Assembly: GCA_964605715.1 (NCBI GenBank)
Contig: CAZSDV010000003.1
Span: 19,175-62,966 of the forward strand
Reading direction: 5' to 3'
Length of the DNA: 43,792 bases
Origin: an uncultured Acidobacteriota bacterium
Lineage (GTDB): Bacteria; Acidobacteriota; Terriglobia; UBA7540; JAPUME01
Within the stretch, counting starts at the first letter, position 1, and every line of letters starts with the position of its first letter. This document shows positions 396 to 29,004 of the stretch, in pieces. The notes beneath the pieces are model-generated. The model saw only the letters and a list, made by a program, of their open reading frames with translations. It ran no database searches and was not told the origin of the DNA. Both the position numbers and the translations under genes were made by a program.

Positions 396-1632
396 TCGAC
401 AGTCTGGTGTGGCTAATGGTTGGTCAGGACGACTAGGTTGGCGGATTCTCGGACGCTCGCTTACTTTGAAGCGGCCCCAGGTACTGGTTACCTTCCTAAC
501 TTTGACAATTACCGCTGCAGTTGCCGCGATGCTTTTGAACCTTTACGGTGATGCACAAGTAAAGATGACCCGTGAGTTTCGATCCTTTGGAGCGAACTTA
601 ATTCTGTCCTCGAATGGCTCGGCTCGTGAAGGCAAGATCATGGCGGAGGTACAAAATGGGCCTGAGGTCTCTCTGATGGCTGAGGGTATGCTGGAAGAGA
701 TCCGTCGGTTGAGTCCTGATTCTCACCGGATCATGGTGGTGGGGATACTAAATGCTGTTGGTCGAGCCCGGAACGTGACGGGCCAGAAGGCTTTAAGGAG
801 CTTCGGTGAACCGGTTATCGTAGTGGGGACTGATTTTACTCTCCTTCATCAGCTGTATTCAGCTTGGCGGCTCCGCGATGAAGTTGTGGTCCAAGCTCAA
901 TCAGGTGCTGTAATCGGTGAGCGGGTGGCTGAGCGATTACTTCTGGAGCGGGGCGATGATCTGGAACTGGAGTTTGAAGGTGGCAGTTCTTCAACTCCCC
1001 TTCGCGTGAAAATTGATAATATCCTTTCGACCGGTGGATCTGAAGATGGCCAGGTATTTCTCTCTTTGGAACAGCTACAGGAAGCTCTAGGGATAAAGGA
1101 TCAAATCAGTCTGGCAGAACTACGTGTTGATGGCCCAACCTTGGAGATCGAAGCTGTTGCGGCTGGGATTGCAAATAGCTTTCCTGAGATTGACGTTCGG
1201 CCGGTGAGGGAGATTGTTTACTCTGAGGGGCAGGTTTTGAAAACGGTTCGCTGGTTACTTTTAACCCTCACATTAATAATCCTGTCCATAACGACACTCT
1301 GCTTACTTGCTACAATTACAGCGATTGTGTTCGAGCGCCAGAGGGAGATTGGATTAATGAAGGCCCTGGGGGCGAGTGACCAGCTCCTAATGGGCTTCTT
1401 CCTTGCAGAAGTGGCGATCCTTGCTTCGGTGGGAAGCTTGGTGGGATTTGGATTTGGCGTGGCCCTGTCTAGGTATCTAGGTATCAGATTGTTTGGAACA
1501 CCCCTTGATCTCTACTGGCCTACCCTGCCGTGGGTAGCTTTGGCCACGGTGGGTGTTGCGCTGCTGGCAGCATGGTCCCCGGTGCAAGTGGTGCGCCGCA
1601 TACATCCAGCGGTGGTGTTGAAGGGAGAGTAA
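388..1632 (+). CDS. ABC transporter permease, MacB/FtsX family with a large extracytoplasmic domain
   Basis: 414-aa ORF with an N-terminal TM helix, a long soluble domain, and a C-terminal FtsX module (FERQREIGLMKALGASDQLLMGFFLAE...). It overlaps both neighbouring genes (8 nt upstream, TAATG downstream). Confidence 0.9.
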   Translation: MTSRQSGVANGWSGRLGWRILGRSLTLKRPQVLVTFLTLTITAAVAAMLLNLYGDAQVKMTREFRSFGANLILSSNGSAREGKIMAEVQNGPEVSLMAEGMLEEIRRLSPDSHRIMVVGILNAVGRARNVTGQKALRSFGEPVIVVGTDFTLLHQLYSAWRLRDEVVVQAQSGAVIGERVAERLLLERGDDLELEFEGGSSSTPLRVKIDNILSTGGSEDGQVFLSLEQLQEALGIKDQISLAELRVDGPTLEIEAVAAGIANSFPEIDVRPVREIVYSEGQVLKTVRWLLLTLTLIILSITTLCLLATITAIVFERQREIGLMKALGASDQLLMGFFLAEVAILASVGSLVGFGFGVALSRYLGIRLFGTPLDLYWPTLPWVALATVGVALLAAWSPVQVVRRIHPAVVLKGE

Positions 1633-2711
1633 TGAGTTTTGTTGAACTGAAAAACTTGGTCAAGAGTTACGGCACCTCAGTTCGGGCGCTCGATCAGGTA
1701 ACTTTTGATGTTGAGTCGGGAGAATGGATTGCTGTCATGGGTCCATCGGGATCAGGAAAAACCACGCTGCTCAACATTCTAGGGGGGCTTGACCACCCTT
1801 CCGAAGGGGAGGTCTGGATTGGCGGTCGGGATGTGACGTGCCTAAATACACAGGAGATGAACCGTTATCGGGCGGAAAAAGTTGGTTTTGTCTTTCAGCA
1901 GTTTCATTTGGTTTCTTATCTGACGGTAGTCGAAAATATCATGCTGGCACAGTATTTTCATAGCGTGGCAGACGAGCAGGAGGCCAGAGATGCCCTTAAG
2001 CAGGTGGGTTTGGGTGAAAGACTTGATTTTTATCCGGCGCAGCTTTCCGGCGGAGAGCAGCAGCGGATTTGTGTGGCGCGGGCCTTAATCAATCAGCCTG
2101 AGCTGATTCTGGCTGACGAGCCAACAGGGAATTTGGATGAAGTAAATGAGGCTCTTATCTTGAGTTTATTGACAGAGTTGCAGCGCAAAGGGAATACCAT
2201 AATTATGGTTACGCACGATCCCGAGGTGGGACGGTTAGCTGACCGGAGAATTGAGCTTCATCACGGGAGATTGAGTGAGTCCCGTTCCCTTCCGTTGGTC
2301 GATGAAGAGTTATTTGACAATCTTTTGAAGAGAATTTGGGTTTTGCAAGAGGATTCAGCTGAAAAAAATCTGGAATTAAGACAGCTACCTGAGCTACGTG
2401 AAAATTTCACAACGCTCACATTAATGGTCGAAGGAGAGTGGATTATCAACAAAGAGGCCACGTTGACCTTGACCAAAAAGGGGCACCAGCGGGCCTCAGA
2501 TATTATACGGCGCCACAGGTTGGCTGAGCGGCTTTTTCGAGACACCTTTGGTTTACCTGAGGAATTGCTGGATGCCAATGCTTGCAAGATTGAGCATACT
2601 TTGAGTGCTGAAGTAACAGAGAAAATCTGTACCTTCCTCCATCATCCCCTGACCTGTCCGCACGGAGCAACCATTCCCCGTGGCCCTTGTTGCGCAGCCG
2701 GACCAGGGTAA
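1632..2711 (+). CDS. ABC transporter ATP-binding protein (MacB/LolD-like) fused to a C-terminal DtxR/MntR-like metal-sensor domain
   Basis: The ATG at 1632 shares TAATG with the permease stop. Motifs: Walker A GPSGSGKTT, signature LSGGEQQR, Walker B LILADEPT, H-loop VTHD. Residues ~223-350 (nt ~2298-2681) read ...TLTKKGHQRASDIIRRHRLAERLFRDTFGLPEELLDANACKIEHTLSAEV...CPHGATIP, which is collinear with the DtxR dimerisation/metal-binding domain. Confidence 0.9.
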   Translation: MSFVELKNLVKSYGTSVRALDQVTFDVESGEWIAVMGPSGSGKTTLLNILGGLDHPSEGEVWIGGRDVTCLNTQEMNRYRAEKVGFVFQQFHLVSYLTVVENIMLAQYFHSVADEQEARDALKQVGLGERLDFYPAQLSGGEQQRICVARALINQPELILADEPTGNLDEVNEALILSLLTELQRKGNTIIMVTHDPEVGRLADRRIELHHGRLSESRSLPLVDEELFDNLLKRIWVLQEDSAEKNLELRQLPELRENFTTLTLMVEGEWIINKEATLTLTKKGHQRASDIIRRHRLAERLFRDTFGLPEELLDANACKIEHTLSAEVTEKICTFLHHPLTCPHGATIPRGPCCAAGPG

Positions 2712-6021: not shown

Positions 6022-6480
6022 ATGAACGTTAACTCTGAATTAATACGAGAGATTGCTTCAAGAGTGGCGGTTTCAGAGGGATTTGAGCTTGTTGATATGG
6101 AGCTTAAGGGTTCCTCTTCGAACCACCTCCTGAGGATATATATCCACAAGTCTGGTGGAATTGATCATGGCGACTGCCAGTTAGTTAGTGAGCAAATGAG
6201 CGCAATCCTGGACGTTGAGGACCTGTTTCCGGGTAGATACACTTTGGAAGTCTCTTCCCCCGGCCTTGATCGTCCTTTGAGGAATGCCGCGGATTTTCAG
6301 CGCTCCTACGGGCAGCGAGCTAAGATCACCCTCCGCGAACCTATGGCCGGCCAACGTAGTTTTGAGGGTCGGCTAATGAGATTTAAAGAAGGGTGTTTGC
6401 AAGTGGAGGTTGACGACAATAAGATTTTGGAACTGAAACACGAAAACATTGTGCGAGCAAAACTCCTGGTTGAGTTTTGA
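6022..6480 (+). CDS. rimP: ribosome maturation factor RimP
   Basis: 152 aa from ATG 6022. Contains GFELVDMELKG....LRIYI and LEVSSPGLDRPL, and sits immediately upstream of nusA. Confidence 0.9.
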   Translation: MNVNSELIREIASRVAVSEGFELVDMELKGSSSNHLLRIYIHKSGGIDHGDCQLVSEQMSAILDVEDLFPGRYTLEVSSPGLDRPLRNAADFQRSYGQRAKITLREPMAGQRSFEGRLMRFKEGCLQVEVDDNKILELKHENIVRAKLLVEF

Positions 6481-15471: not shown

Positions 15472-17151
15472 ATGGTTTCGAGGACAATGACTAGTTCACT
15501 TGCGAAAACGATTACCTTGGTGGTTCTATTGGTCGTGTTGCGTCCGGGGACAGCACAGAATCAAAGACAAGCGGAGTTTGACAAGCAGAGGCTAGAGGCG
15601 ATCGAAGATCTTTCTGAGTCGTTGGCCAACGACCTATTGGAGATGTCTGTTGCCGTTCGAAACAAAGACCTTGATTTAATTGGTAAGTTTGTTGCCAATC
15701 CGATCGTTGCAAAACCGCCTCCGAGCGAGCCAGATTCTCTGGTGCATGAATTGAAATGGATCCATGCGCATTCCTGGAAACAAAGACATGAAACACTTTC
15801 CCGTACAGAATTCCTTCAGGGTTGGGAGGGTTTTCTGGGCCACTTTTCTGAGATCGAGGATGCCCGCTTCAAAGTAAAGCAGGCAACCTTTGACGAATCA
15901 CAGCAAATCGAGGGCAGTGCAAGCGTAGGGTTCTATCTTATCGGCCGGGATCGTGAAGGGCGTCGCGAGTGGGTGACAGCTCAAGCCGATATTATGGGTA
16001 TAAAGAAGGGGAATGATCCATGGCGGATCAGTCGGTTTGACCTGAACTCGTTCGAATCCAAAATTGCGGTGAAGGATCTTTTTTCTGAAGTCGCGGTGCC
16101 TGCTGGAGTATCCGCTGTTTTTCCACCTTTTGGTGTGGAGCCAAACGACGGCTTCATGTATCACGGTGTTGCCACTGCAGATGTAAACGGAGACGGCCTA
16201 CTGGATGTTGTTGCTACCGGGGTGGATCAAAATTACCTCTACCTCAACGAAGGAAACGGCCGTTTTCGGGATATATCAGCAGAGTCTCTAGTGAAGTATG
16301 CTCCGCAAGGGTCTGGCCCGCTCTTCTTAGATTATGACAACGACGGTGATGTGGACATATTCTTTGCCGCGTTTGGCCCGCAAGTCCTTCTCGAAAATCG
16401 ACTTTTCCCCGACGGCGAACTTCATTTCTGGGACGTTTCTGGGCCTGCAAAGGTTGCCGTACGTGCCGTGGGGTTCAGTGCCGTGGCGGCTGATGTGGAC
16501 GGCAATGGTTTCCCTGATATCTATGTAGCCTCTTACAACCGGTACGGCATGGTAATGCCTAATGCGTGGCACCAGGCTACGAACGGTACACGTAATCCAC
16601 TGTTTATCAACCAGGGTGACGGAACTTTTCGGGAAGCAGCTGCAGATTGGGGTGTTGATGACGGGCGGTGGAGTTATGCAGCTGCTTTTGCTGATATTGA
16701 TGACGACGGGGACCAAGATCTGTACGTAGCTAATGACTTTGGGGAAAATGGTTTTTACCTGAACCAGGGCGACCGATTTGTTGATGTAGCCGCGACCAGA
16801 GGCTTGAAGGATCCTGGGTTTGGTATGGGGGTTTCTTTTGGAGATTACGACAATGATGGAAACCTGGACCTACACATTACGAATATGTCTTCGACTGCCG
16901 GCAACCGGATTCTCCGGCGCCTCTTCCCTGAAGAACAACGTGACGGCCTTTTACTGAAGAAGCTTGCCATAGGAAACAACCTATACAGGAACAACGGAGA
17001 TGGAACCTTTAACGATGTTACTGCTCAGGTAGGCGGCCTGCCAGGAGGTTGGGCATTTGGGGGAGGGTTTGTGGACTTTGATAATGATGGGTGGGAAGAT
17101 CTCTATACCCCCAATGGTTTTATCTCTGGCAAATCAATGAAAGATACCTGA
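15472..17151 (+). CDS. FG-GAP/VCBS repeat protein (CRTAC1-like), N-terminal part ending at an in-frame TGA
   Basis: Signal peptide, then repeated Ca-binding FG-GAP motifs (DVNGDGLLDV, DYDNDGDVDIFF, DVDGNGFPDIYV, DIDDDGDQDLYV, DYDNDGNLDLHI, DFDNDGWEDLY). Ends at TGA 17149-17151, in the same frame as the next ORF. Confidence 0.85.
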   Translation: MVSRTMTSSLAKTITLVVLLVVLRPGTAQNQRQAEFDKQRLEAIEDLSESLANDLLEMSVAVRNKDLDLIGKFVANPIVAKPPPSEPDSLVHELKWIHAHSWKQRHETLSRTEFLQGWEGFLGHFSEIEDARFKVKQATFDESQQIEGSASVGFYLIGRDREGRREWVTAQADIMGIKKGNDPWRISRFDLNSFESKIAVKDLFSEVAVPAGVSAVFPPFGVEPNDGFMYHGVATADVNGDGLLDVVATGVDQNYLYLNEGNGRFRDISAESLVKYAPQGSGPLFLDYDNDGDVDIFFAAFGPQVLLENRLFPDGELHFWDVSGPAKVAVRAVGFSAVAADVDGNGFPDIYVASYNRYGMVMPNAWHQATNGTRNPLFINQGDGTFREAAADWGVDDGRWSYAAAFADIDDDGDQDLYVANDFGENGFYLNQGDRFVDVAATRGLKDPGFGMGVSFGDYDNDGNLDLHITNMSSTAGNRILRRLFPEEQRDGLLLKKLAIGNNLYRNNGDGTFNDVTAQVGGLPGGWAFGGGFVDFDNDGWEDLYTPNGFISGKSMKDT

Positions 17152-18270
17152 AGCTTGTTTTGGCGCCACGTCGTGGCCGCATCAGAAAAGGTTGAGCAAG
17201 CCGGTAACCAGAAGTACCAGACCAATCATATGAGTGCTATTTTTCAGCAAGGACTTTCCTTTAGCGGATTTGAGCGTGACGCGCTGGGGCTCAATATGAA
17301 GGGAAAGCGGTTCCTTGACATCTCTGGTATTTCAGGGGTTGATTCCATTAGCGATGGGCGTGGAGCAATATTTGCTGACTTCGACAATGATGGTGATTCG
17401 GACATCTTTCTGACTACCCTCCAAGGACAAGCTCACCTCTTATTTCGGAACAATGTTGGGCAGGAGAATAACTTTATTCGAGTCCATTTAGAGGGCTCCG
17501 AAAGCGGTCGAGATGCTTTCGGAACCGTGGTGCGCGCAAAAACTTCCTCAGGTATCCTTACTAAGATCAAGGGAGGGGGAAGCGGATTTCTGTCCCAACA
17601 TGATCCCCGTGTGCTGTTAGGTTTGGGAAAAGACCCGACAGCTGAATGGATTGAGATCAAGTGGCCTAGTGGCACGGTTCAGCGTTTTGCAGATGTTGCC
17701 GCAGGTTCCACTTTGAAAATCAAAGAGGACAAGGCCGAACTCCATTTGCTAACAGAGAAACGCTTTCAACTCGCAGATCCTCTTTCGAAAGAGGAAGAGT
17801 TTTTTGCAAACCTAAATTTCAAGCGAGGTGAAGCCTTTCCAGACCTCGAACTTCGTTCTCTCACTAATGAAGTGATTAATTTGCGGAGCCTAGTGAAGCC
17901 AGATCATAGATATTTTGTAAATTTGTGGGCTACCTGGTGCGTGCCTTGCCGGGAGGAGATGCCAGAGCTGCAAAAGCTATATCCACAATTTCAGGAGGCA
18001 GGGATTGAAATCCTCGGCGTCAGTATTGATATCGATACAGCTGATCGTGTTCCACGGTTTCTGCGCGATCACGGGATTCTCTATCCTGCTTACACAGCTG
18101 ACAAGTCTTCGGTCTCAAAAATCTTTTCAGGGGAAGAGGTTGTGATACCAATGTCTTTCCTGCTTGATGGGGAAGGTAGGGTTCTGGAAGTTTTTACTGG
18201 TTGGTCACAGGAAACAGAAGCTAAGATTCATCTGCTAACATCTAACGGTTCGCGGGAAACTACCCGATGA
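17152..18270 (+). CDS. continuation of the FG-GAP protein: one more FG-GAP repeat, an UnbV/ASPIC domain and a TlpA-like thioredoxin domain
   Basis: Same frame as 15472..17151 with no stop other than the TGA, and no RBS or ATG near its 5' end. Contains DFDNDGDSDIFL, GRDAFGTVVRAK...GGGSGFLSQHDPRVLLGLG...IEIKWPSGTVQ (UnbV_ASPIC), and FVNLWATWCVPCREEMPEL (TlpA/ResA-type CxxC). Confidence 0.8.
   Translation, partial: SLFWRHVVAASEKVEQAGNQKYQTNHMSAIFQQGLSFSGFERDALGLNMKGKRFLDISGISGVDSISDGRGAIFADFDNDGDSDIFLTTLQGQAHLLFRNNVGQENNFIRVHLEGSESGRDAFGTVVRAKTSSGILTKIKGGGSGFLSQHDPRVLLGLGKDPTAEWIEIKWPSGTVQRFADVAAGSTLKIKEDKAELHLLTEKRFQLADPLSKEEEFFANLNFKRGEAFPDLELRSLTNEVINLRSLVKPDHRYFVNLWATWCVPCREEMPELQKLYPQFQEAGIEILGVSIDIDTADRVPRFLRDHGILYPAYTADKSSVSKIFSGEEVVIPMSFLLDGEGRVLEVFTGWSQETEAKIHLLTSNGSRETTR
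17161..17181 (+). promoter_or_regulatory. SECIS-like hairpin downstream of the in-frame TGA 17149
   Basis: Counting the U of UGA as +1: pairs G17-C29, C18-G28, C19-G27, A20-U26, C21-G25, with loop G22 U23 C24. Outer pairs G15-C30 (C16 bulged), G14-C32 and U13-A33. Confidence 0.45.
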
Positions 18271-21139: not shown

Positions 21140-21955
21140 ATGAGGATATTGCTAAAGAGCAACTGGAGTGAGCAACTGAGACTGTGGTGCATAATCTTTG
21201 CTCTCGGTGGGTTGGTGCCACCATCGTCAGCGCGAGAAGAAGAAGTGAGGAATCCTCATACCACTTCGGTTGACGTGACAATCGGGGCCAGTTTATTCAG
21301 AGGCCACTGTGCCTTCTGTCACGGGTTGGCAGGAGGAGGTGGGCGAGGACCGAATTTGACGTTGGGAGAGTTTTACCACGGATCGAGTGATGCTGAGCTA
21401 CTTCACACGGTACAAAAAGGACTCCAGGGGACCGAGATGCCAGGCTCCTGGCTAAAGACCCAAAGTCTTTGGAGGATGATTGCTTATGTGCGTTCGTTGA
21501 GTGAAGATTCTCGCCCGACTAAACTACCCGGCAACCCAAAAGACGGCCGGGAGCTATTTCGTGGGCGTGGTGCTTGCCTTCAGTGTCACCTAGTTCAAGG
21601 TCAGGGGGGGCGACTCGGACCGGATCTTACTAATATTGGCTCCCGCCTCAATCCAGAATCCCTAAAGGTTTCAATTTTCAGGCCCAATGAGGTTGTTAAT
21701 CCGGAATACTGGTCTTTTCGGGTTACTGAGAAGAGCGGCACCATCCTCCAGGGAATTCGGCTTAACGAAGGTCCTTATTCACTCCAGATGATGGATATGA
21801 ATGAAAATTTACATTCCTTGTGGAAGCGAAATCTAAAGGTCCATATGACCAAAACATCTTGGATGCCCTCTTATGAAGATGTTTTCAATCAAGATGAGGT
21901 AGATGACATCATTGCCTACCTTTACTCGCTTCGAAGCAAACCGAGGATTAAATGA
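21140..21955 (+). CDS. diheme c-type cytochrome, secreted
   Basis: Signal peptide and two CxxCH sites (CAFCH, CLQCH). The second is followed by GPDLTNIGSR...SWMPSY...DIIAYLYSL, typical of dehydrogenase-associated cytochrome c domains. ATGA overlap with the next gene. Confidence 0.85.
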   Translation: MRILLKSNWSEQLRLWCIIFALGGLVPPSSAREEEVRNPHTTSVDVTIGASLFRGHCAFCHGLAGGGGRGPNLTLGEFYHGSSDAELLHTVQKGLQGTEMPGSWLKTQSLWRMIAYVRSLSEDSRPTKLPGNPKDGRELFRGRGACLQCHLVQGQGGRLGPDLTNIGSRLNPESLKVSIFRPNEVVNPEYWSFRVTEKSGTILQGIRLNEGPYSLQMMDMNENLHSLWKRNLKVHMTKTSWMPSYEDVFNQDEVDDIIAYLYSLRSKPRIK

Positions 21956-23550
21956 AGCGTTTATGGTTTTTCCTTCTTGTCTTTAGCTGCGTGTTAAGAC
22001 TTCCAGCACAGGTTACTTACGAGCGACTACTTCAGGCCGAACAAGAACCTGAGAACTGGCTAACCTATTCAGGAAGTTATTCAAGTCAGCGTTATAGCAA
22101 ACTCAAATTAATTGACCGCAACAATGTTGGGAATCTGATACTGAAGTGGGTTTTTCAGATGAAGACAACAGTGCATGTGGAAACTTCACCTCTGATCGTC
22201 GATGGGATTATGTATGTTACTGATCCCCCTAATAAAGTTCACGCCATTGATACGCGGACAGGCCGTACCTTCTGGTCTCACCAGCGAGCTCTCCCTGGAC
22301 ACATTAACCGTACGGTCTGCTGCGGCTTGGTTAACCGTGGACTAGCCATACTGGGTGATAAACTCTATTGGGGAACATTAGATGCTCACCTGATTGCATT
22401 GGATTCGAAGACAGGGTCTGTTCTTTGGGATGTCGAAGTGGCTGATTACCGAGCTGGCTATGCGATTACCAGTGCTCCACTAGCGGTCAAAAATATGGTG
22501 ATTACGGGTATTGCCGGAGGAGAGTATGGCATTCGTGGGTTTGTGGATGCCTATGATTCAGAGACCGGGAAACAAGTATGGCGATTCTACACCGTTCCTG
22601 GGCCTGGTGAGCCAGGAAACGAAACCTGGGAAGGGGATTCCTGGAAGACAGGAGGCGCTCCCACTTGGGTTACTGGTTCATTTGATCCAGGCTTGAATCT
22701 GATTTACTGGGGAACAGGAAATCCAGGTCCAGATTGGGACGGCAGTGTCCGCGAGGGAGATAACCTGTATTCATCAGCTGTGGTTGCGTTGGATGCCGAC
22801 AGCGGAAAACTTAGGTGGCATTATCAATTCACACCACATGATGTCCATGACTGGGATGCCGCTCAAATCCCTGTCCTAGTCGATGCCAAGTTTCAAGGTC
22901 GTGATCGGAAGTTGATGCTGTGGGGTAATCGTAATGCCTTTTATTATATATTGGATCGAGAGACTGGCAAGTTTCTCTTGGGAAAGGCGTATGCTCGACA
23001 AACCTGGTCCGATGGTTTCACTGCAGATGGCCGACCGATTGTTAAGCCTAATACTGATCCCACCCCTGAGGGCAACCTAGTTTATCCTGGATTGATAGGA
23101 GCTACTAACTGGTTCTCTCCCTCCTACAGTCCAAAATCGGATCTGTTTTACCTTTCGGTGTGGGAGGATTATGGCAGCATTTACTTTACGGAGGAATCCG
23201 ATTATAAACCTGGTGACCGTTATCTTGGCGGTGTTGCGGCGAAGGTTCCTGATGAACCGGGAAGAGGTGTTATTCGTGCCTTGGACCCATGGACTGGCGA
23301 ATTAAAATGGGAACACAAGTTGCAAAAAAAACCTATCACTGGACTTCTCTCTACTGCCGGAGGTCTTGTGTTCGGCGGCTCAGAGGAGGGCTACTTCTAT
23401 GCTCTGGATTCTGATTCAGGTGAGGACCTTTGGCGCATTAACACAGGAGGTCAAGTCCGTGCTGGCCCTGTTACGTATTTAAGTGAAGGAAAGCAGCTGG
23501 TGTCAATTGCCTCCGGTAGCGCCATATTCACTTTTGAGCTTCAGCAGTAG
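21952..23550 (+). CDS. PQQ-dependent alcohol dehydrogenase (methanol/ethanol family)
   Basis: 532 aa with a signal peptide. Vicinal disulfide CC (C123-C124, nt 22318-22323), W-rich propeller repeats, and active-site D300-W-D302 (nt 22849-22857). Confidence 0.92.
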   Translation: MKRLWFFLLVFSCVLRLPAQVTYERLLQAEQEPENWLTYSGSYSSQRYSKLKLIDRNNVGNLILKWVFQMKTTVHVETSPLIVDGIMYVTDPPNKVHAIDTRTGRTFWSHQRALPGHINRTVCCGLVNRGLAILGDKLYWGTLDAHLIALDSKTGSVLWDVEVADYRAGYAITSAPLAVKNMVITGIAGGEYGIRGFVDAYDSETGKQVWRFYTVPGPGEPGNETWEGDSWKTGGAPTWVTGSFDPGLNLIYWGTGNPGPDWDGSVREGDNLYSSAVVALDADSGKLRWHYQFTPHDVHDWDAAQIPVLVDAKFQGRDRKLMLWGNRNAFYYILDRETGKFLLGKAYARQTWSDGFTADGRPIVKPNTDPTPEGNLVYPGLIGATNWFSPSYSPKSDLFYLSVWEDYGSIYFTEESDYKPGDRYLGGVAAKVPDEPGRGVIRALDPWTGELKWEHKLQKKPITGLLSTAGGLVFGGSEEGYFYALDSDSGEDLWRINTGGQVRAGPVTYLSEGKQLVSIASGSAIFTFELQQ

Positions 23551-23755
23551 CCCGTTCCCTTCAGATGGGAGGGGTGGTTACCTCCATAGATTCTGCAGAT
23601 GGCCTCAAAAATAAACTTTCAACTAATAACAGAAAATGAGCTGGGTTTTTGTCTTGCGCTCATAAGGCATGACACTATTATTTTGTTTCTACAACTAAGA
23701 GGAATGCAAATTAATGAGCAGTGAAAAAGCTAAAAGCCCTGGAAGTGCTAGCCTC

Positions 23756-26077
23756 CTAAAGGGTAGCTTTTCTCAGACGTAGTGCGTTGGTAATTACAGA
23801 AATGGAACTGAAGGTCATAGCCCCAGCCGCAATCATCGGGTTAAGTAATAATCCAAAAAAAGGGTAAAGGATTCCAGCAGCGATCGGAACCCCGAGAGAG
23901 TTAAAAATAAGGGCTAAGAAGAGGTTCTGGCGGATATTGCGCATGGTTGTACGACTCAACCGTCGAGCCCGTGTGATTCCACGCAGGTCCCCCTTAATGA
24001 GCGTCACCCCGGCATTTTCCATGGCTATAGCAGTCCCAGTTCCCATGGCGATTCCTACTTGTGCCAGAGCTAGGGCGGGGGCATCATTGATCCCGTCTCC
24101 GGCCATTGCTACCACATGGCCTTGAGCTCGGAGCCGTTTTACCACTTCACCTTTTTGGTCAGGTAACACTTCAGCTTCCATGCCAGTTAGCTCAAGCTTC
24201 TGTGCTACAGCGGTAGCGGTTCCCTTACTGTCGCCTGTGACCATAATGACTTTTATGCCCTCTTGGTTTAGCATCTTTATTGCTTCCGGAGTAGATTTCC
24301 TAATGGGATCTCCTACGGCCACGAGCCCAGCTATTTTGTTTTCCACAGCTACGAATACCACTGTCTGTCCGTCCTGTTGAAGGGTTTCAGCGCGATCGGC
24401 TAGAGTGCTCGGATCAATACCTAATTCTTTAAGCAGAGCGATGTTACCAAGAGTCACCTGTTGTCCATCCACCGTTCCCATTACACCTTTTCCGGTTAGC
24501 GATTGGAATTCTTGCGCTTCATGAAGATCCAAGTCTCTCTCACGTGCGGCCGTTACGATAGCGGCCGCTAGGGGATGCTCGCTTGCCTTTTCCAAGGTTG
24601 CCGCGAGTCGCAGAATCTCTAAGTTGTCCATGTCTGGTACAGTAACAATAGCACTCAATCGGGGCTTACCCTCTGTTAGGGTGCCGGTCTTATCAATTAC
24701 CAACGTATCAATTTTTTCGAGCACTTCCAGAGCCTCCGCATCCTTGATTAGAACTCCCGTGGTTGCGCCAAGGCCGATGCCGACCATGATCGACATTGGC
24801 GTAGCCAGCCCCAGTGCGCAGGGGCAAGCTATAACCAAAACCGCCACAGCATTTACAAGTGCATGAGCCAACGTAGGCTTTGGCCCGAGAAGGGCCCACA
24901 AGAGGAAGGTGATCCCGGCGATGGAGAAAACTGCTGGGATGAAATAGGAGGCCACCACATCAGCTAGGCGTTGAGTCGGTGCACGGCTTCGCTGCGCTTC
25001 ACTTACCATTTGGATGATTTGCGCCAGAAGGGTATCTTTTCCTACTTGTTCCGCGCGCATCTGAAAGGTACCAGTACCGTTTAATGTCCCGCTGGTGACA
25101 CGACTCTTAGAAGATTTTTCCACGGGGATTGCTTCGCCGGTTACAGAGGATTCATCTATGGAGCTTGTCCCCATGAGTACCATGCCGTCTACGGGAATTT
25201 TCTCTCCCGGGCGAACTCGGAGCCGGTCACCCGGCTTAACTCCTTCTATTGGCACATCAATATCTGTCTCGTCATCCTGTACTAGGCAGGCAGTTTTAGG
25301 TGCAAGACCAAGAAGAGCTTTGAGCGCAGTGCCGGTCTTACCACGGGCTCGGAGCTCGAGCACTTGTCCCAACAATACCAGGGTGATAATCATGGCCCCA
25401 GCTTCAAAATAGACGTCAATTCTCCCACTTCCACTTTGAAAAGAAACGGGAATGATGCCTGGCAAAATCGTGACAAGGACACTAAATATGTAGGCGATCC
25501 CGGCACCCACGGTAATGAGGGTGAACATGTTCAAGCTTCGCTGCGTTGTCGACATCCATCCGCGCTGGAGAAGCGGCCATCCTCCCCAAAGAACAACTGG
25601 TGTGGCTAGCGCGAATTGCATCCACCGCCCCATGGCTTTAGAGATTATCTGTTCTAGTGGTTGCCCAGGGATCATTTCTCCCATTGCGAGAACAAGTACA
25701 GGAAATGAGAGAGCGAAGCTTATCCAGAACCGCCGTGTCATCTCGACGAGCTCAGGGTTTTCTTTTTGTTCTAGCGTCAAAGTACGAGGTTCGAGCGCCA
25801 TGCCACATTTCGGGCAGGGGCCAGGTTCAGATTCGTTAACCTCTGGATCCATCGGGCAGACATAGCTGTTTTCTTGGCTTTTTTGCGGGGATCCTACACT
25901 CGATGAAGGTGTATTAGGATTTAGTTGAGCCATTGCAGGTTTCAGGTATTTCGCTGGGTGGCCTTGGAATTTTTCACGGCAGCGCTCGCAGCAGAAGTAA
26001 TATGTTTTGCCGCCGTGCTCGTGGGAGGCTACAGCTGAAGTTGGCTCTATCTCCATTCCGCATACGGGATCTATCAA
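23756..26077 (-). CDS. copA: heavy-metal (Cu+-type) translocating P1B-type ATPase
   Basis: 773 aa. TM CPC motif ([12 protein letters not shown]), DKTGTLT, SEHPLA and GDGINDAP. N-terminal TRASH/YHS-like DPVCGMEI...YYFCCERC plus CPMDPEV...CPKCGMAL, and no GMTCxxC HMA domain. Confidence 0.95.
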
Positions 26078-26098
26078 TGCTGAATCACTCCTTTTATC

Positions 26099-26650
26099 CT
26101 ATTTCATCGTGGCAGGAATCGAGATTCTGCGCCATTCACCTCGCACGATAGCTTTCCGGATCTCTGTGGCTGATTTTCCTTTTCTGGTTAGCTGGTCTGC
26201 AAGGAGGACCTCCTTGATGCAGGTGAGTCACCCAGCTCCGTGATCGGAGGCGTAGCAATCCAGCAAGCTCCCATGACCATGTTGGTCACAATAGCAGTAG
26301 CAGGGTTGCTGTGCCAGAACCTCGGGTATGGCGCTAGCAATACGGTAAGCACGCGCGACAAGAGGTTGGCTTCGGAAATAGGAAGCTGGTACAAGACGCG
26401 GGAAGGGTTTTGCATTCTCCGGATCCTTGTGAAAGGGAGGGGAGGGGCGCATTGTAGGCGACTGGACTGCTGAGGTTGGTTGGCGTGCCGTTTCTGCGCC
26501 CGGCTGCATAGGGGCAGGGGCACGTAAGTTTTCGTTTCTTTTTAGTAATCCGTAGATTCCGAACCCAACCACTAGCAGGACCACAAAAACCCAACTTCGG
26601 TTTTTGGGTTTAGGTTGAGGTTGTTTTCTCTTTTTAATCCTCCGACTCAT
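26099..26650 (-). CDS. membrane-anchored PCYCGC-motif protein, predicted selenoprotein (TGA 26230..26228 read as Sec)
   Basis: ATG 26650 follows GAGGAG. One TM helix (WVFVVLLVVGFGIYGLL), then ...QQPCYCYCDQHGHGSLLDCYASDHGAG-TGA-LTCIKEV...KGKSATEIRKAI.... The frame stays open past the TGA for 42 codons to TAG 26101..26099, 21 nt before the copA ATG. If the TGA is a true stop, the CDS is 26228..26650. Confidence 0.65.
26200..26216 (-). promoter_or_regulatory. SECIS-like hairpin downstream of the in-frame TGA 26230..26228
   Basis: mRNA +15..+31 = CAAGGAG-GUC-CUCCUUG, a perfect 7-bp stem with apical loop G22 U23 C24. Confidence 0.5.
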
Positions 26651-26970
26651 GGCTTGCTCCTCTGTCCCTTTCCTAATGAAGGTAATCAAATGTAATTGGC
26701 TATTCGACGCCTCTTGCATGAAGGCTATGTTTCTTAGTGCCCTTTTCAGGGGATGAAGATTACAGGATATACCAAAAGTTTCGAATTGATGGAACTCAAA
26801 TACTTTTTGGATCTTTAATATAAGATTTAGACCTTGCGTTGCGCTCTGTGTTTGTTATCGAATGACCACGCAAGGGATTCTGTTGGTAGCTGAATCACAT
26901 CAAATCCCAGGTACACTGGTTCCGAGTGATCACCCATTTTTTACGGCCAGCAATAGGAGGGGAAACTATC

Positions 26971-29004
26971 ATGACCATGATTAAAGGTATTCTTTTTTTG
27001 GCTTTTATGAGTTTTTTTTTAGGAGGAGCAATGGTCCATGCTCAGAGCTCATCAGGGATTCCAGAAAAAGATATTCGCATTAAGGTCCGGGACTTGAATT
27101 CACCCTGTAAAATTCCTCAGTACGATTCACTGCAAGGATGGTTAAGTCGCATGGCCTCCCTTCGAAAACAGATCCTTGTTAGTGCCGGGCTTTGGCCTTT
27201 ACCTCCGAAGGCTCCTTTAAATTCAGAAATCTTTGGGCGCATAGACTACGAAGATTACAGCATAGAAAAGGTTTACTTTGAAAGCCATCCAGGGTTCTAT
27301 GTTACAGGAAATCTTTATAGGCCACTTGGGAAACAGGGACCGTTTCCTGCCATTCTATCTCCACATGGACATTGGCCATACGGGCGATTTGCAAGTCAGG
27401 TTCATGGTTCCGTGCCTGCACGCGCCGTTCATTTTGCTCGCCAAGGGGCAATAGTTTTTTCGTATGACATGGTCGGCTACAACGATAGCTTTCAGGTGAG
27501 CCATAGTTTTCGAGGTGCCGAAGAAGAGCTTTGGAGTGTGGGTCTGCTCGGGCTGCAATTGTGGAATAGCATTCGCGTCGTGGATTTCCTGCTCTCACTT
27601 CCTGAAGTGGATAAAAGTCGCCTCGCAGCCACAGGTGCGTCGGGCGGGGCAACGCAAACTTTTCTCCTAACGGCAATCGATGATCGAATTAAAGTTTCTG
27701 CCCCAGTCAATATGATTTCAGGTCACATGCAAGGGGGCTCTATTTGTGAAAATGCGCCAGGCTTGCGCATTGATACTTGCAATATCGAAATCGGTGCCAT
27801 GATGGCACCTCGTCCAATGCTTATGGTGTCAGCTACGGGAGATTGGACGACCGACACACCACGGATTGAGTATCCTGGCATACGGCACATCTACGAGCTC
27901 TATGGCAAGCAAGACAGGATTTCAAACGAGCACTTCCATGCCCCACACAACTACAATAAAGAGAGCCGCGAAGCTGTCTACGCTTGGTTTGATCGCTGGC
28001 TTCTGGGCCAGAATTTCGAGGAAGCAGTAAAGGAGAAAACATATCGACCTGACCGACCTTCGAAGCAGATGGTATTTTTCGGCAGAGCTTTACCTGAGGC
28101 CGCAAAAACTGAACAAGAGCTAGTGAAATACTTAATTCAATCTGCCCACCGACAGCTAGAATCCCTCAAACCGAAAAATGCCAAAGAAGTTGAAAGATTT
28201 CGCAGAGTTTTTGAGCCCTCACTCCGTTATGCGCTGATGGTAAAAGAGCCTGATTCCGCCCAGGTCTTAGTTGAGAATAAAGCGGTTACATCTCTGGGAG
28301 AGGTTACCCAGGAAGATTTACTACTGAGCTATCGTGGTAGCCGGATTTCTGCCGTGTTGTGGCACCAAGGTGGGGTACGCAGTAGGCCAGCGGCCTTGCT
28401 CGTTCACCCACAGGGTACTTCTGCTTTTATTGAGATGACCACGAATCAACCGGGTACATTAGTAAAAAACCTACTGCGTAGAAAATTTTCTGTTTTGACG
28501 ATCGATACTTTTAAGCCTCTTCCAATTCCGGCTGACGGCTACATTGAGGAACGAGGAAAATTTTTCTCGACTTACAATCGCTCTGATGACGCCAAACGAA
28601 TTCAGGATATTTTAACTGCCCTCGTTTACCTCGAGGGACGAAGGGGAATTTCAGGTGTTAATTTGGTGGGAGTGGAAAGAGGGGGACTCCTGTGTCTGTT
28701 GGCGCGCGGGCTAACATCGAAAGTAAAAGTTCTTGTGGCTGACGCTCAACAGTTCAATATTGATGATGATCAACGCTACCTGCGAGACCTTTCCTTGCCT
28801 GGGATCAGACGGGCAGGTGATTTTCGCACGGCCGTTACCCTCTCATCACCAGGAAGGCTACTTCTCCATAACACGGGCGGAAGTTCTTTGGTGCCCTGGG
28901 CTCAAGATGTTTATAAGGCGACAGGCTTTCAAAATAATCTTGAAGTTCTTGACGGTAAAGTTTCAGAAAAGGATTTGGTTCGCTGGCTGCAGTCCCTTAG
29001 GTGA
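26971..29004 (+). CDS. secreted alpha/beta hydrolase (acetyl-xylan-esterase / dienelactone-hydrolase-like) with a long C-terminal extension
   Basis: ATG 26971 follows AGGAGG. Signal peptide MTMIKGILFLAFMSFFLGGAMVHAQ and nucleophile elbow GASGG (ATGASGGATQTF). I could not assign the C-terminal ~300 aa. Confidence 0.75.
   Translation: MTMIKGILFLAFMSFFLGGAMVHAQSSSGIPEKDIRIKVRDLNSPCKIPQYDSLQGWLSRMASLRKQILVSAGLWPLPPKAPLNSEIFGRIDYEDYSIEKVYFESHPGFYVTGNLYRPLGKQGPFPAILSPHGHWPYGRFASQVHGSVPARAVHFARQGAIVFSYDMVGYNDSFQVSHSFRGAEEELWSVGLLGLQLWNSIRVVDFLLSLPEVDKSRLAATGASGGATQTFLLTAIDDRIKVSAPVNMISGHMQGGSICENAPGLRIDTCNIEIGAMMAPRPMLMVSATGDWTTDTPRIEYPGIRHIYELYGKQDRISNEHFHAPHNYNKESREAVYAWFDRWLLGQNFEEAVKEKTYRPDRPSKQMVFFGRALPEAAKTEQELVKYLIQSAHRQLESLKPKNAKEVERFRRVFEPSLRYALMVKEPDSAQVLVENKAVTSLGEVTQEDLLLSYRGSRISAVLWHQGGVRSRPAALLVHPQGTSAFIEMTTNQPGTLVKNLLRRKFSVLTIDTFKPLPIPADGYIEERGKFFSTYNRSDDAKRIQDILTALVYLEGRRGISGVNLVGVERGGLLCLLARGLTSKVKVLVADAQQFNIDDDQRYLRDLSLPGIRRAGDFRTAVTLSSPGRLLLHNTGGSSLVPWAQDVYKATGFQNNLEVLDGKVSEKDLVRWLQSLR

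Follow-up and report, generated by a model that had tools for sequence, protein, structure and literature searches.

A probable CYCXC family selenoprotein gene beside a copper-type ATPase gene in an uncultured Acidobacteriota bacterium

In a 43,792-nt stretch of DNA from an uncultured Acidobacteriota bacterium (contig CAZSDV010000003.1; the whole stretch is referred to here as the window), a minus-strand reading frame ends at a TGA codon, stays open in frame beyond it, and is followed at a short distance by the gene for a P1B-type ATPase. The locus raises two questions: whether the TGA ends the protein or encodes selenocysteine (Sec), and what a protein read through this codon might do beside a copper transporter. 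The original prediction, made from the sequence of the window, answered both at once by proposing a Sec-containing PCYCGC-motif membrane protein that serves a copper exporter as metallochaperone or redox partner. The two parts of that answer are taken in turn below, the first by comparison across genomes and the second from gene neighbourhoods and a structure model.

Gene layout and family membership

The minus-strand ORF at 26228..26719 has its best start at ATG 26650 and stops at TGA 26230..26228, with 42 open codons from there to a TAG; sequence and translation confirmed all of these coordinates as originally predicted (Table 1). Homologues P0002, P0004, P0005 and P0008 share an MSRR start in the alignment, which backs ATG 26650. 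The 42 codons after the TGA encode LTCIKEVLLADQLTRKGKSATEIRKAIVRGEWRRISIPATMK, a product with the pattern xxC-IKE-LLA...GK..EIR.AI.RGEW. Between the TAG and the ATPase gene lies a gap of 21 nt, and both this gap and the ATPase start position at 26077 hold as predicted, although the start codon there is TTG and not the ATG that had been assumed.

Table 1. Positions of the CYCXC gene, its elements and the adjacent ATPase gene in the window.
Feature	Position	Strand	Details
Complete CYCXC (PCYCGC, OS_HP4) gene, probable selenoprotein	26099..26650	minus	183 codons, ATG 26650 to TAG 26099; predicted Sec codon 141
Shine-Dalgarno-like GAGGAG	26657..26662	minus	6 nt 5' of ATG 26650
N-terminal membrane anchor (predicted)	26540..26593	minus	SWVFVVLLVVGFGIYGLL; after a strongly basic N-terminus
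P-C-Y-C-Y-C family motif	26288..26305	minus	residues 116-121
U-x-x-C motif (predicted), UGA CUC ACC UGC	26219..26230	minus	residues 141-144; Sec codon 26230..26228
Candidate SECIS hairpin CAAGGAG-GUC-CUCCUUG	26200..26216	minus	+15..+31 from the U of UGA; loop G22 U23 C24
Post-UGA coding extension	26099..26227	minus	42 codons and TAG (26101..26099); conserved C-terminal helices
Cu(I)-type P1B ATPase	23756..26077	minus	TTG start; YHS and HMBD N-terminal, CPC motif

Profile hidden Markov models were used to score the 183-residue product with the TGA read as Cys, and the matches place this product in the CYCXC/PCYCGC family (NF041379, PF13798, formerly "OS_HP4"). The NCBIfam equivalog NF041379 ("OS_HP4_CYCXC, CYCXC family (seleno)protein") matches it at 98.8 bits, above the cutoff of 90, and PF13798 (PCYCGC) matches residues 94-168, crossing position 141, at 33.7 bits against a cutoff of 25; Pfam and NCBIfam gave no match to any other family. 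The 140-residue product that ends at the TGA reaches 61.3 bits with NF041379, under the cutoff of 90. The window protein has in common with the CYCXC/OS_HP4 family the P-C-Y-C-x-C motif, the U/C-x-x-C site and the C-terminal GK..EIR..RG(D/E)W, and no structural difference from the family was seen.

A database search returned 321 homologues of the window protein, one of which (P0022) is named "CYCXC family (seleno)protein" in NCBI. Among the best 120 of these, 55 gene calls (P0001 and 54 others) stop exactly at the TGA site and 65 run on with CxxC. Cys is invariant at the TGA column in the full-length homologues, and the other invariant columns of the alignment are P116, C117, C119, C121, H126, C132, H137, C144, E147, I164, R165 and W173, with Y118 and G158 nearly invariant. 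Residues P116, C117, C119, C121, H126, C132, H137, U141 and C144 of the window protein fall on invariant columns, and C144, E147, I164, R165 and W173 lie 3' of the TGA and are missing from the 140-residue product. The statement in the original prediction that PCYCGC proteins carry a CxxC followed by a GK..EI segment is borne out, with C141, C144, I164 and R165 (of the EIR) invariant and G158 nearly so.

The original prediction was not aware of a listing of this family among selenoproteins, but there is one: besides NF041379 and the name of P0022, two reviews list it. One (PMC9312934, 2022) gives "Hypothetical protein OS_HP4, UxxC" as a selenoprotein family, and a 2026 selenoproteome review likewise lists the PF13798 family with a UxxC Sec motif; both credit the analysis of Olavius symbionts by Zhang and Gladyshev. 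For this family their tables give an example accession, the Pfam accession and the UxxC motif, and no function. Since the family stands in NCBIfam and in both reviews, the selenoprotein find at 26099..26650 is a correct rediscovery of a family already catalogued. What is added here is a description of the SECIS for the acidobacterial members, the Sec to Cys ratio of 53:28, and a clade-restricted link to Cu/Ag efflux. The result also matters for annotation, as gene callers cut CYCXC genes at the TGA (55 of the best 120 homologues) and so lose the conserved C-terminal third.

Decoding of the in-frame TGA

Taken by itself, the sequence of the window is statistically unconvincing for a Sec reading, and the significance comes from comparison across genomes. 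A stretch of 42 open codons after a stop has a chance probability of about 0.13 by our own estimate and is not rare, and the local 71-nt fold differs from shuffled sequences by z = -1.18, which is not significant. Because this single-sequence fold signal is weak, comparative analysis was relied upon.

Scanning a single genome for each GTDB species yielded 80 loci with 81 gene copies, nearly all in metagenome-assembled genomes of Acidobacteriota (Terriglobia, Blastocatellia, Bryobacterales, Acidiferrales). The codon at the site is TGA in 53 of the 81 copies and TGC or TGT in 28; no copy has any other codon, TAA and TAG included. Alignments run through the TGA position and homologues have Cys there, a point that the original prediction named for checking. 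In species-representative genomes, mostly of Acidobacteriota, Sec forms exceed Cys forms about 2:1. The 42 codons are conserved as well: a tail is kept after every TGA, open in frame for about 37-46 codons (counted from the tails; 42 in the window) with its motifs retained. The two closest relatives, on ENA contigs ctg362127 (1.66 Mb) and ctg495738 (3.04 Mb), have the same TGA followed in frame by LTCIKEVLLVDQMTKQGKSA(V/E)...

The 7-bp hairpin described in the original prediction at +15..+31 (26216..26200), with G22, U23 and C24 in its loop, is present in the window, and its helix recurs with all seven pairs in 53 of 55 TGA forms. Only one of 26 Cys forms has the complete hairpin; this form (L030) is plausibly the product of a recent change from Sec to Cys. 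Nucleotide 22 is G in every TGA form. Three pairs show compensatory double changes, namely 15-31 (C-G to U-A), 16-30 (A-U to G-C or C-G) and 21-25 (G-C to A-U). Over 45 distinct sequences the share of paired cells is 99%, which falls to 46-59% when the 3' arm is shifted by 1-3 columns, and the observed covariation score was reached by none of 500 shuffles.

The codons that make up the hairpin behave in the same way. Sec forms with the peptide KEVLL over the hairpin use AAG GAG GUN CUC CUU in 31 of 31 cases, whereas in the nine Cys forms with this peptide the synonymous codons vary (AAA/AAG, mostly GAA, CUG/CUC/CUU/UUG/CUA/UUA) and only 3-5 of the 7 hairpin positions pair. The synonymous sites of the hairpin are frozen only where a TGA precedes, as predicted for a SECIS. 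Conservation, covariation and a synonymous constraint confined to TGA forms all speak for the SECIS proposed in the original prediction. By this account the hairpin would act as a bacterial SECIS that shows G22-U23-C24 at an fdhF-like distance from the UGA, and it would presumably be presented to SelB carrying Sec-tRNA(Sec).

Since the E. coli fdhF minihelix also spans +15..+31 from the U of its UGA and exposes GGUC (G22 G23 U24 C25), the geometry of the CYCXC hairpin is canonical. The two share the span, and the CYCXC hairpin carries G21 G22 U23 C24 at its tip; it differs from fdhF in a stem without the bulged U and in a GU that lies one nucleotide nearer the UGA. Its loop nominally has 3 nt (GUC/GUU), which become 5 nt should the closing G-C pair open. 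No SECIS or tRNA-Sec was matched in Rfam scans of the window at gathering thresholds or of 26100..26300 with E-values up to 10, and Rfam has no usable covariance model for the CYCXC hairpin. The sequence AAGGAGG in the 5' arm of the hairpin was also considered as an internal Shine-Dalgarno site and rejected, the only start (UUG at +29) giving a frame of four codons.

On the comparative data the UGA at codon 141 is, with high likelihood, decoded as Sec, which would make the locus a selenoprotein gene, and what it encodes is very probably a CYCXC selenoprotein with a working insertion hairpin. As for the insertion machinery, neither the 43.8-kb window nor a 10-kb extension to its left (L164) nor any of the retrieved loci showed selA, selB, selD or tRNA-Sec; ARAGORN detected no tRNA-Sec in the window or in 165 loci, and Pfam annotation of 30 larger ORFs of the window revealed no SelA, SelB or SelD. 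Users of selenoproteins are known among the Acidobacteria (PMC1794560), and a second in-frame TGA in the window (17149), which is followed by a similar hairpin with G22 U23 C24 in matching positions, suggests that the host decodes UGA as Sec.

The absence of tRNA-Sec and sel genes from the window, its extension and the retrieved loci would also suit a UGA that is read through as another amino acid, either as Cys by a selC*-type tRNA(Cys) or as Trp or Gly by near-cognate or suppressor decoding, and UGA-reading variants of tRNA(Cys) do exist in some anaerobes (PMC7609411). The selC* tRNA(Cys) are, however, named only from Firmicutes, Thermodesulfobacteria, Nitrospirae and Proteobacteria, not from Acidobacteria (PMC7609411), and a global reassignment of UGA conflicts with the other frames of the window that do stop at TGA. 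The site alternates with Cys only, and a SECIS-type hairpin with an invariant loop G at the canonical distance is the signature of SelB-dependent decoding, so that read-through without Sec is improbable.

A true stop, with a 140-residue protein and a downstream frame and hairpin that are untranslated or nonfunctional, is how gene callers annotate the site (P0001 and 54 other calls), and the 42-codon open stretch could be due to chance. Such a stop would nevertheless leave a product under the family cutoff (61.3 against 90 bits) and cost it the invariant C144, E147, I164, R165 and W173; it must also contend with an extension kept as protein in 53 species, with a stop that is always TGA, and with a synonymous constraint on the hairpin that is confined to TGA forms. 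We regard a true stop as very improbable. A single base separates TGA from TGC or TGT, and a sequencing or assembly error, or else a pseudogene, might be suspected for that reason, but 53 independent species-level genomes share this TGA, as do several metagenome assemblies of independent origin, and the gene has neither frameshifts nor additional stops. The recurrence in 53 species effectively refutes the error and pseudogene readings, whose chance of being right is negligible. The comparative data clearly favour Sec at codon 141.

A second gene with an in-frame TGA

The plus-strand frame 15472..18270 is continuous but for the TGA at 17149..17151, which separates the peptides GFISGKSMKDT and SLFWRHVV. 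It encodes FG-GAP repeats in its N-terminal part and, in its C-terminal part, UnbV_ASPIC and a TlpA/ResA-like thioredoxin domain. FG-GAP and UnbV_ASPIC normally form a single polypeptide, and distant CRTAC1-like homologues align unbroken over the site. Among the best 120 homologues of the region around 17149, 117 end at exactly ...DT. For the C-terminal part, each of the best 120 homologues is a separate ORF of at most 343 residues, and none is fused by way of a sense codon. In metagenome loci with a stop at this site, the stop is TGA in 15 of 15, the window included. More distant homologues have Ser, Gly, Ala, Met or Glu there, and the only two sequences that align a Cys, L128 and L159, are remote and loosely similar.

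The TGA forms carry a hairpin downstream of the codon, for example GGCGGCA-GGUCG-UGUCGCC at +14..+32, in which G22 and U23 are invariant and C24 is present in all but two. Four pair types (AU, GU, UA, CG) occur at pair 18-28, and 92% of cells are paired compared with 17-64% when the arms are slid. Forms without the TGA that share the WRQVV peptide lack the hairpin. An FG-GAP/ASPIC/TlpA-like selenoprotein family was not found in NCBIfam or in the 2026 selenoproteome review, and a literature search for an FG-GAP selenoprotein returned no relevant paper. These patterns suggest that the gene may represent a widespread, undescribed selenoprotein family, essentially without Cys counterparts, whose members gene callers always split. 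As a lead it is more interesting than the CYCXC find.

Copper context, predicted fold and known systems

The ATPase encoded at 23756..26077 has E1-E2_ATPase, Hydrolase, YHS and HMBD domains in Pfam and a CPC motif, and it matches the copper-translocating ATPase model TIGR01511 at 571.5 bits (cutoff 397). The TTG-initiated product has (M)IDPVCGM at its N-terminus and is matched by Pfam YHS from residue 1 on. No terminator-like site was found in the 21-nt gap between the CYCXC and ATPase genes; a sigma-70 promoter scan 5' of the CYCXC gene found no promoter, which is uninformative for the phylum Acidobacteriota. The Cu-type ATPase 21 nt downstream stands as originally predicted. The metallochaperone or redox role proposed along with it draws on a neighbourhood seen in one clade and is only weakly supported.

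The ATPase adjacency is found only in the window and in two relatives (loci L001-L003). In 19 of 78 loci the three genes nearest to CYCXC include a CusA/CzcA-type RND pump (TIGR00914, 1213 bits, cutoff 701), which mostly lies directly upstream on the same strand, and these clusters also hold a CusB-like adaptor with an HMBD domain and an outer-membrane factor. The 19 RND-linked loci, two of which carry Cys forms, all fall in the clade to which the window protein is closest. Most other clades have unrelated neighbours (NHL, SLT, ABC-2, BNR and sulfatase proteins). The recurrent link to CusCBA/CopA efflux genes in one clade offers a functional hypothesis open to test.

In the window protein a single transmembrane helix follows a basic N-terminus, and in the alignment many homologues carry lipoprotein-type signals (LLLASC, LLLAGC, VLGAC) at the position of the anchor. 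Because of these signals and the N-terminal helix, the topology is predicted to be N-in/C-out, with the Cys/Sec domain extracytoplasmic. An AlphaFold (AF2) model of the Cys homologue P0010 is all-alpha with pLDDT above 94 over the domain, and it places the first Cys of the CxxC just before, and the second within, the first turn of an alpha-helix. When this model was compared with the PDB by Foldseek, the lowest E-value was 3.8, and no PDB sequence was matched in a profile search. As the PDB holds no relative in fold or sequence, neither a metal-chaperone nor a thioredoxin fold backs the proposed role.

From these elements a mechanism can be sketched. The all-alpha domain, rich in Cys and His (C-x-C-x-C, H, C, H, U-x-x-C) and anchored by the transmembrane helix, would sit outside the cytoplasm, where the selenolate-thiolate pair of the helix-start U-x-x-C might bind a soft metal, Cu(I) or Ag(I), or carry out periplasmic thiol/selenol redox chemistry. 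In this way the domain would assist the neighbouring CopA-type ATPase, and in relatives a CusCBA-type pump, in exporting copper. On the strength of gene neighbourhood we tentatively propose that the protein binds Cu(I)/Ag(I) in the periplasm or acts there as a redox partner in support of copper efflux, at somewhat less than an even chance. A narrower version, in which CYCXC is a new-fold extracytoplasmic Cu(I)/Ag(I) carrier from the exit of CopA to CusCBA that fills the CusF role in Acidobacteriota, is rather unlikely. In it the U-x-x-C, backed by the C-x-C-x-C/His cluster, would accept copper where it leaves CopA on the periplasmic side, and the advantage of Sec would be a selenolate that remains reduced and metal-avid in an oxidising periplasm.

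The protein may also be a true selenoprotein whose function is not copper, either a general extracytoplasmic thiol/selenol oxidoreductase or a binder of Zn or Fe, with an ATPase adjacency that is incidental and stems, for instance, from a small mobile islet. The confinement of that adjacency to the window and L001-L003 fits such a function, as do the transposase genes that flank the cluster in L001 and L003, the roughly three quarters of loci that have no metal gene nearby, and a Firmicute PCYCGC lipoprotein that adjoins an Fe3+ binding protein (PMC13068155). It is harder to reconcile with the closest clade, in which CusA/CzcA-type pumps recur on the same strand in many species and beside both Sec and Cys forms, and with the window, which keeps CYCXC with the ATPase though RND genes are absent. 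A function outside copper is a serious rival, likewise at somewhat less than an even chance.

Set beside known systems, the copper-linked reading has several points of likeness. Like CusF, CopG/DUF411 and CopZ, CYCXC is small, rich in Cys and His, predicted to be extracytoplasmic (CopZ is cytoplasmic) and encoded beside Cu(I) exporters, and in many loci it comes directly after cusA. Like CopZ (MxCxxC) and Atx1, it has a CxxC-type motif at the N-terminus of a helix, as judged from the P0010 model. It is all-alpha and has no solved relative, whereas CusF is a beta-barrel, CopG thioredoxin-like and CopZ ferredoxin-like. Sec likewise replaces Cys in other predicted bacterial UxxC selenoproteins tied to heavy-metal transport (E1-E2 cation ATPase, MerT-like, CobW-like and YHS-domain proteins), but these are other families, and the ATPase of the window itself uses Cys (CPC, YHS CGM) and not Sec.

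Sec and Cys forms among relatives of the CYCXC gene

Relatives of the window's CYCXC gene (PCYCGC/OS_HP4 family) occur as Sec forms, with TGA at the U/C-x-x-C site, and as Cys forms, with TGC or TGT. One acidobacterial MAG (locus L007) carries a tandem pair of CYCXC paralogues, at 6403 and 7001, after a CusA-type pump, with TGA (Sec) in the first copy and TGT (Cys) in the second. In locus L030 the codon is TGC (Cys), and yet an intact hairpin, CAAGGAG-GCC-CUCCUUG, lies at about 6394..6425. Since L030 is the sole Cys form with an intact hairpin (1 of 26), it suggests a recent Sec-to-Cys replacement.

A second gene with an in-frame TGA

The window holds another gene split by an in-frame TGA, which encodes FG-GAP, UnbV_ASPIC and TlpA-like thioredoxin domains. 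The hairpin that follows this TGA shows covariation at pair 18-28. Of the 120 best homologues, 117 stop at the same residue as the frame before this TGA, the stop codon at this site is TGA in all 15 cases (15/15), and homologues that lack the TGA carry Ser, Gly, Ala, Met or Glu there, not Cys. No entry for this TGA family was found in NCBIfam or in the 2026 selenoproteome review, and thus it may represent a family of selenoproteins not described before.

Features located in the window (hairpin positions count the U of UGA as +1)
Feature	Position	Strand	Remark
ABC-transporter ATPase fused to C-terminal metal-binding/dimerisation domain of iron-dependent (DtxR-type) repressors	1530..2711	+	
FG-GAP / UnbV_ASPIC / TlpA-like thioredoxin gene	15472..18270	+	split by in-frame TGA
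In-frame TGA of this gene	17149..17151	+	context …SMKDT*SLFWRHVV…
Hairpin after this TGA	about 17162..17180	+	presents G22 U23 C24

Genes at the left edge and upstream

FtsX/MacB-like permeases lie beside the ABC-ATPase/DtxR-type fusion gene, and so do FTR1/FtrD-like iron transport genes, the latter in the upstream extension L164. L164 1..2034, from a related contig of an ENA metagenome assembly, contains a gene with an FGE-sulfatase domain and a Methyltransf_33 gene, a pair similar to EgtB/EgtD of ergothioneine biosynthesis.

The metal-gene cluster and its ATPase

Window 21140..29004 and L003 1267..17502, a relative's CYCXC locus, have syntenic flanking genes, with an AXE1-like esterase on one side and a PQQ dehydrogenase and cytochrome c on the other. 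Around the CYCXC-ATPase pair, L003 and a further such locus, L001, have extra genes: cusCBA-like genes, DDE transposases and one for an unknown protein of 229 aa. From this, the metal cluster has the appearance of an islet that varies and may be mobile. The original prediction placed an ATG start for the Cu-type P1B ATPase at window 26077 (minus strand), but the codon there is TTG. At its N-terminus this ATPase carries first a YHS and then an HMBD domain, where an HMA/CopZ-like domain is usual.
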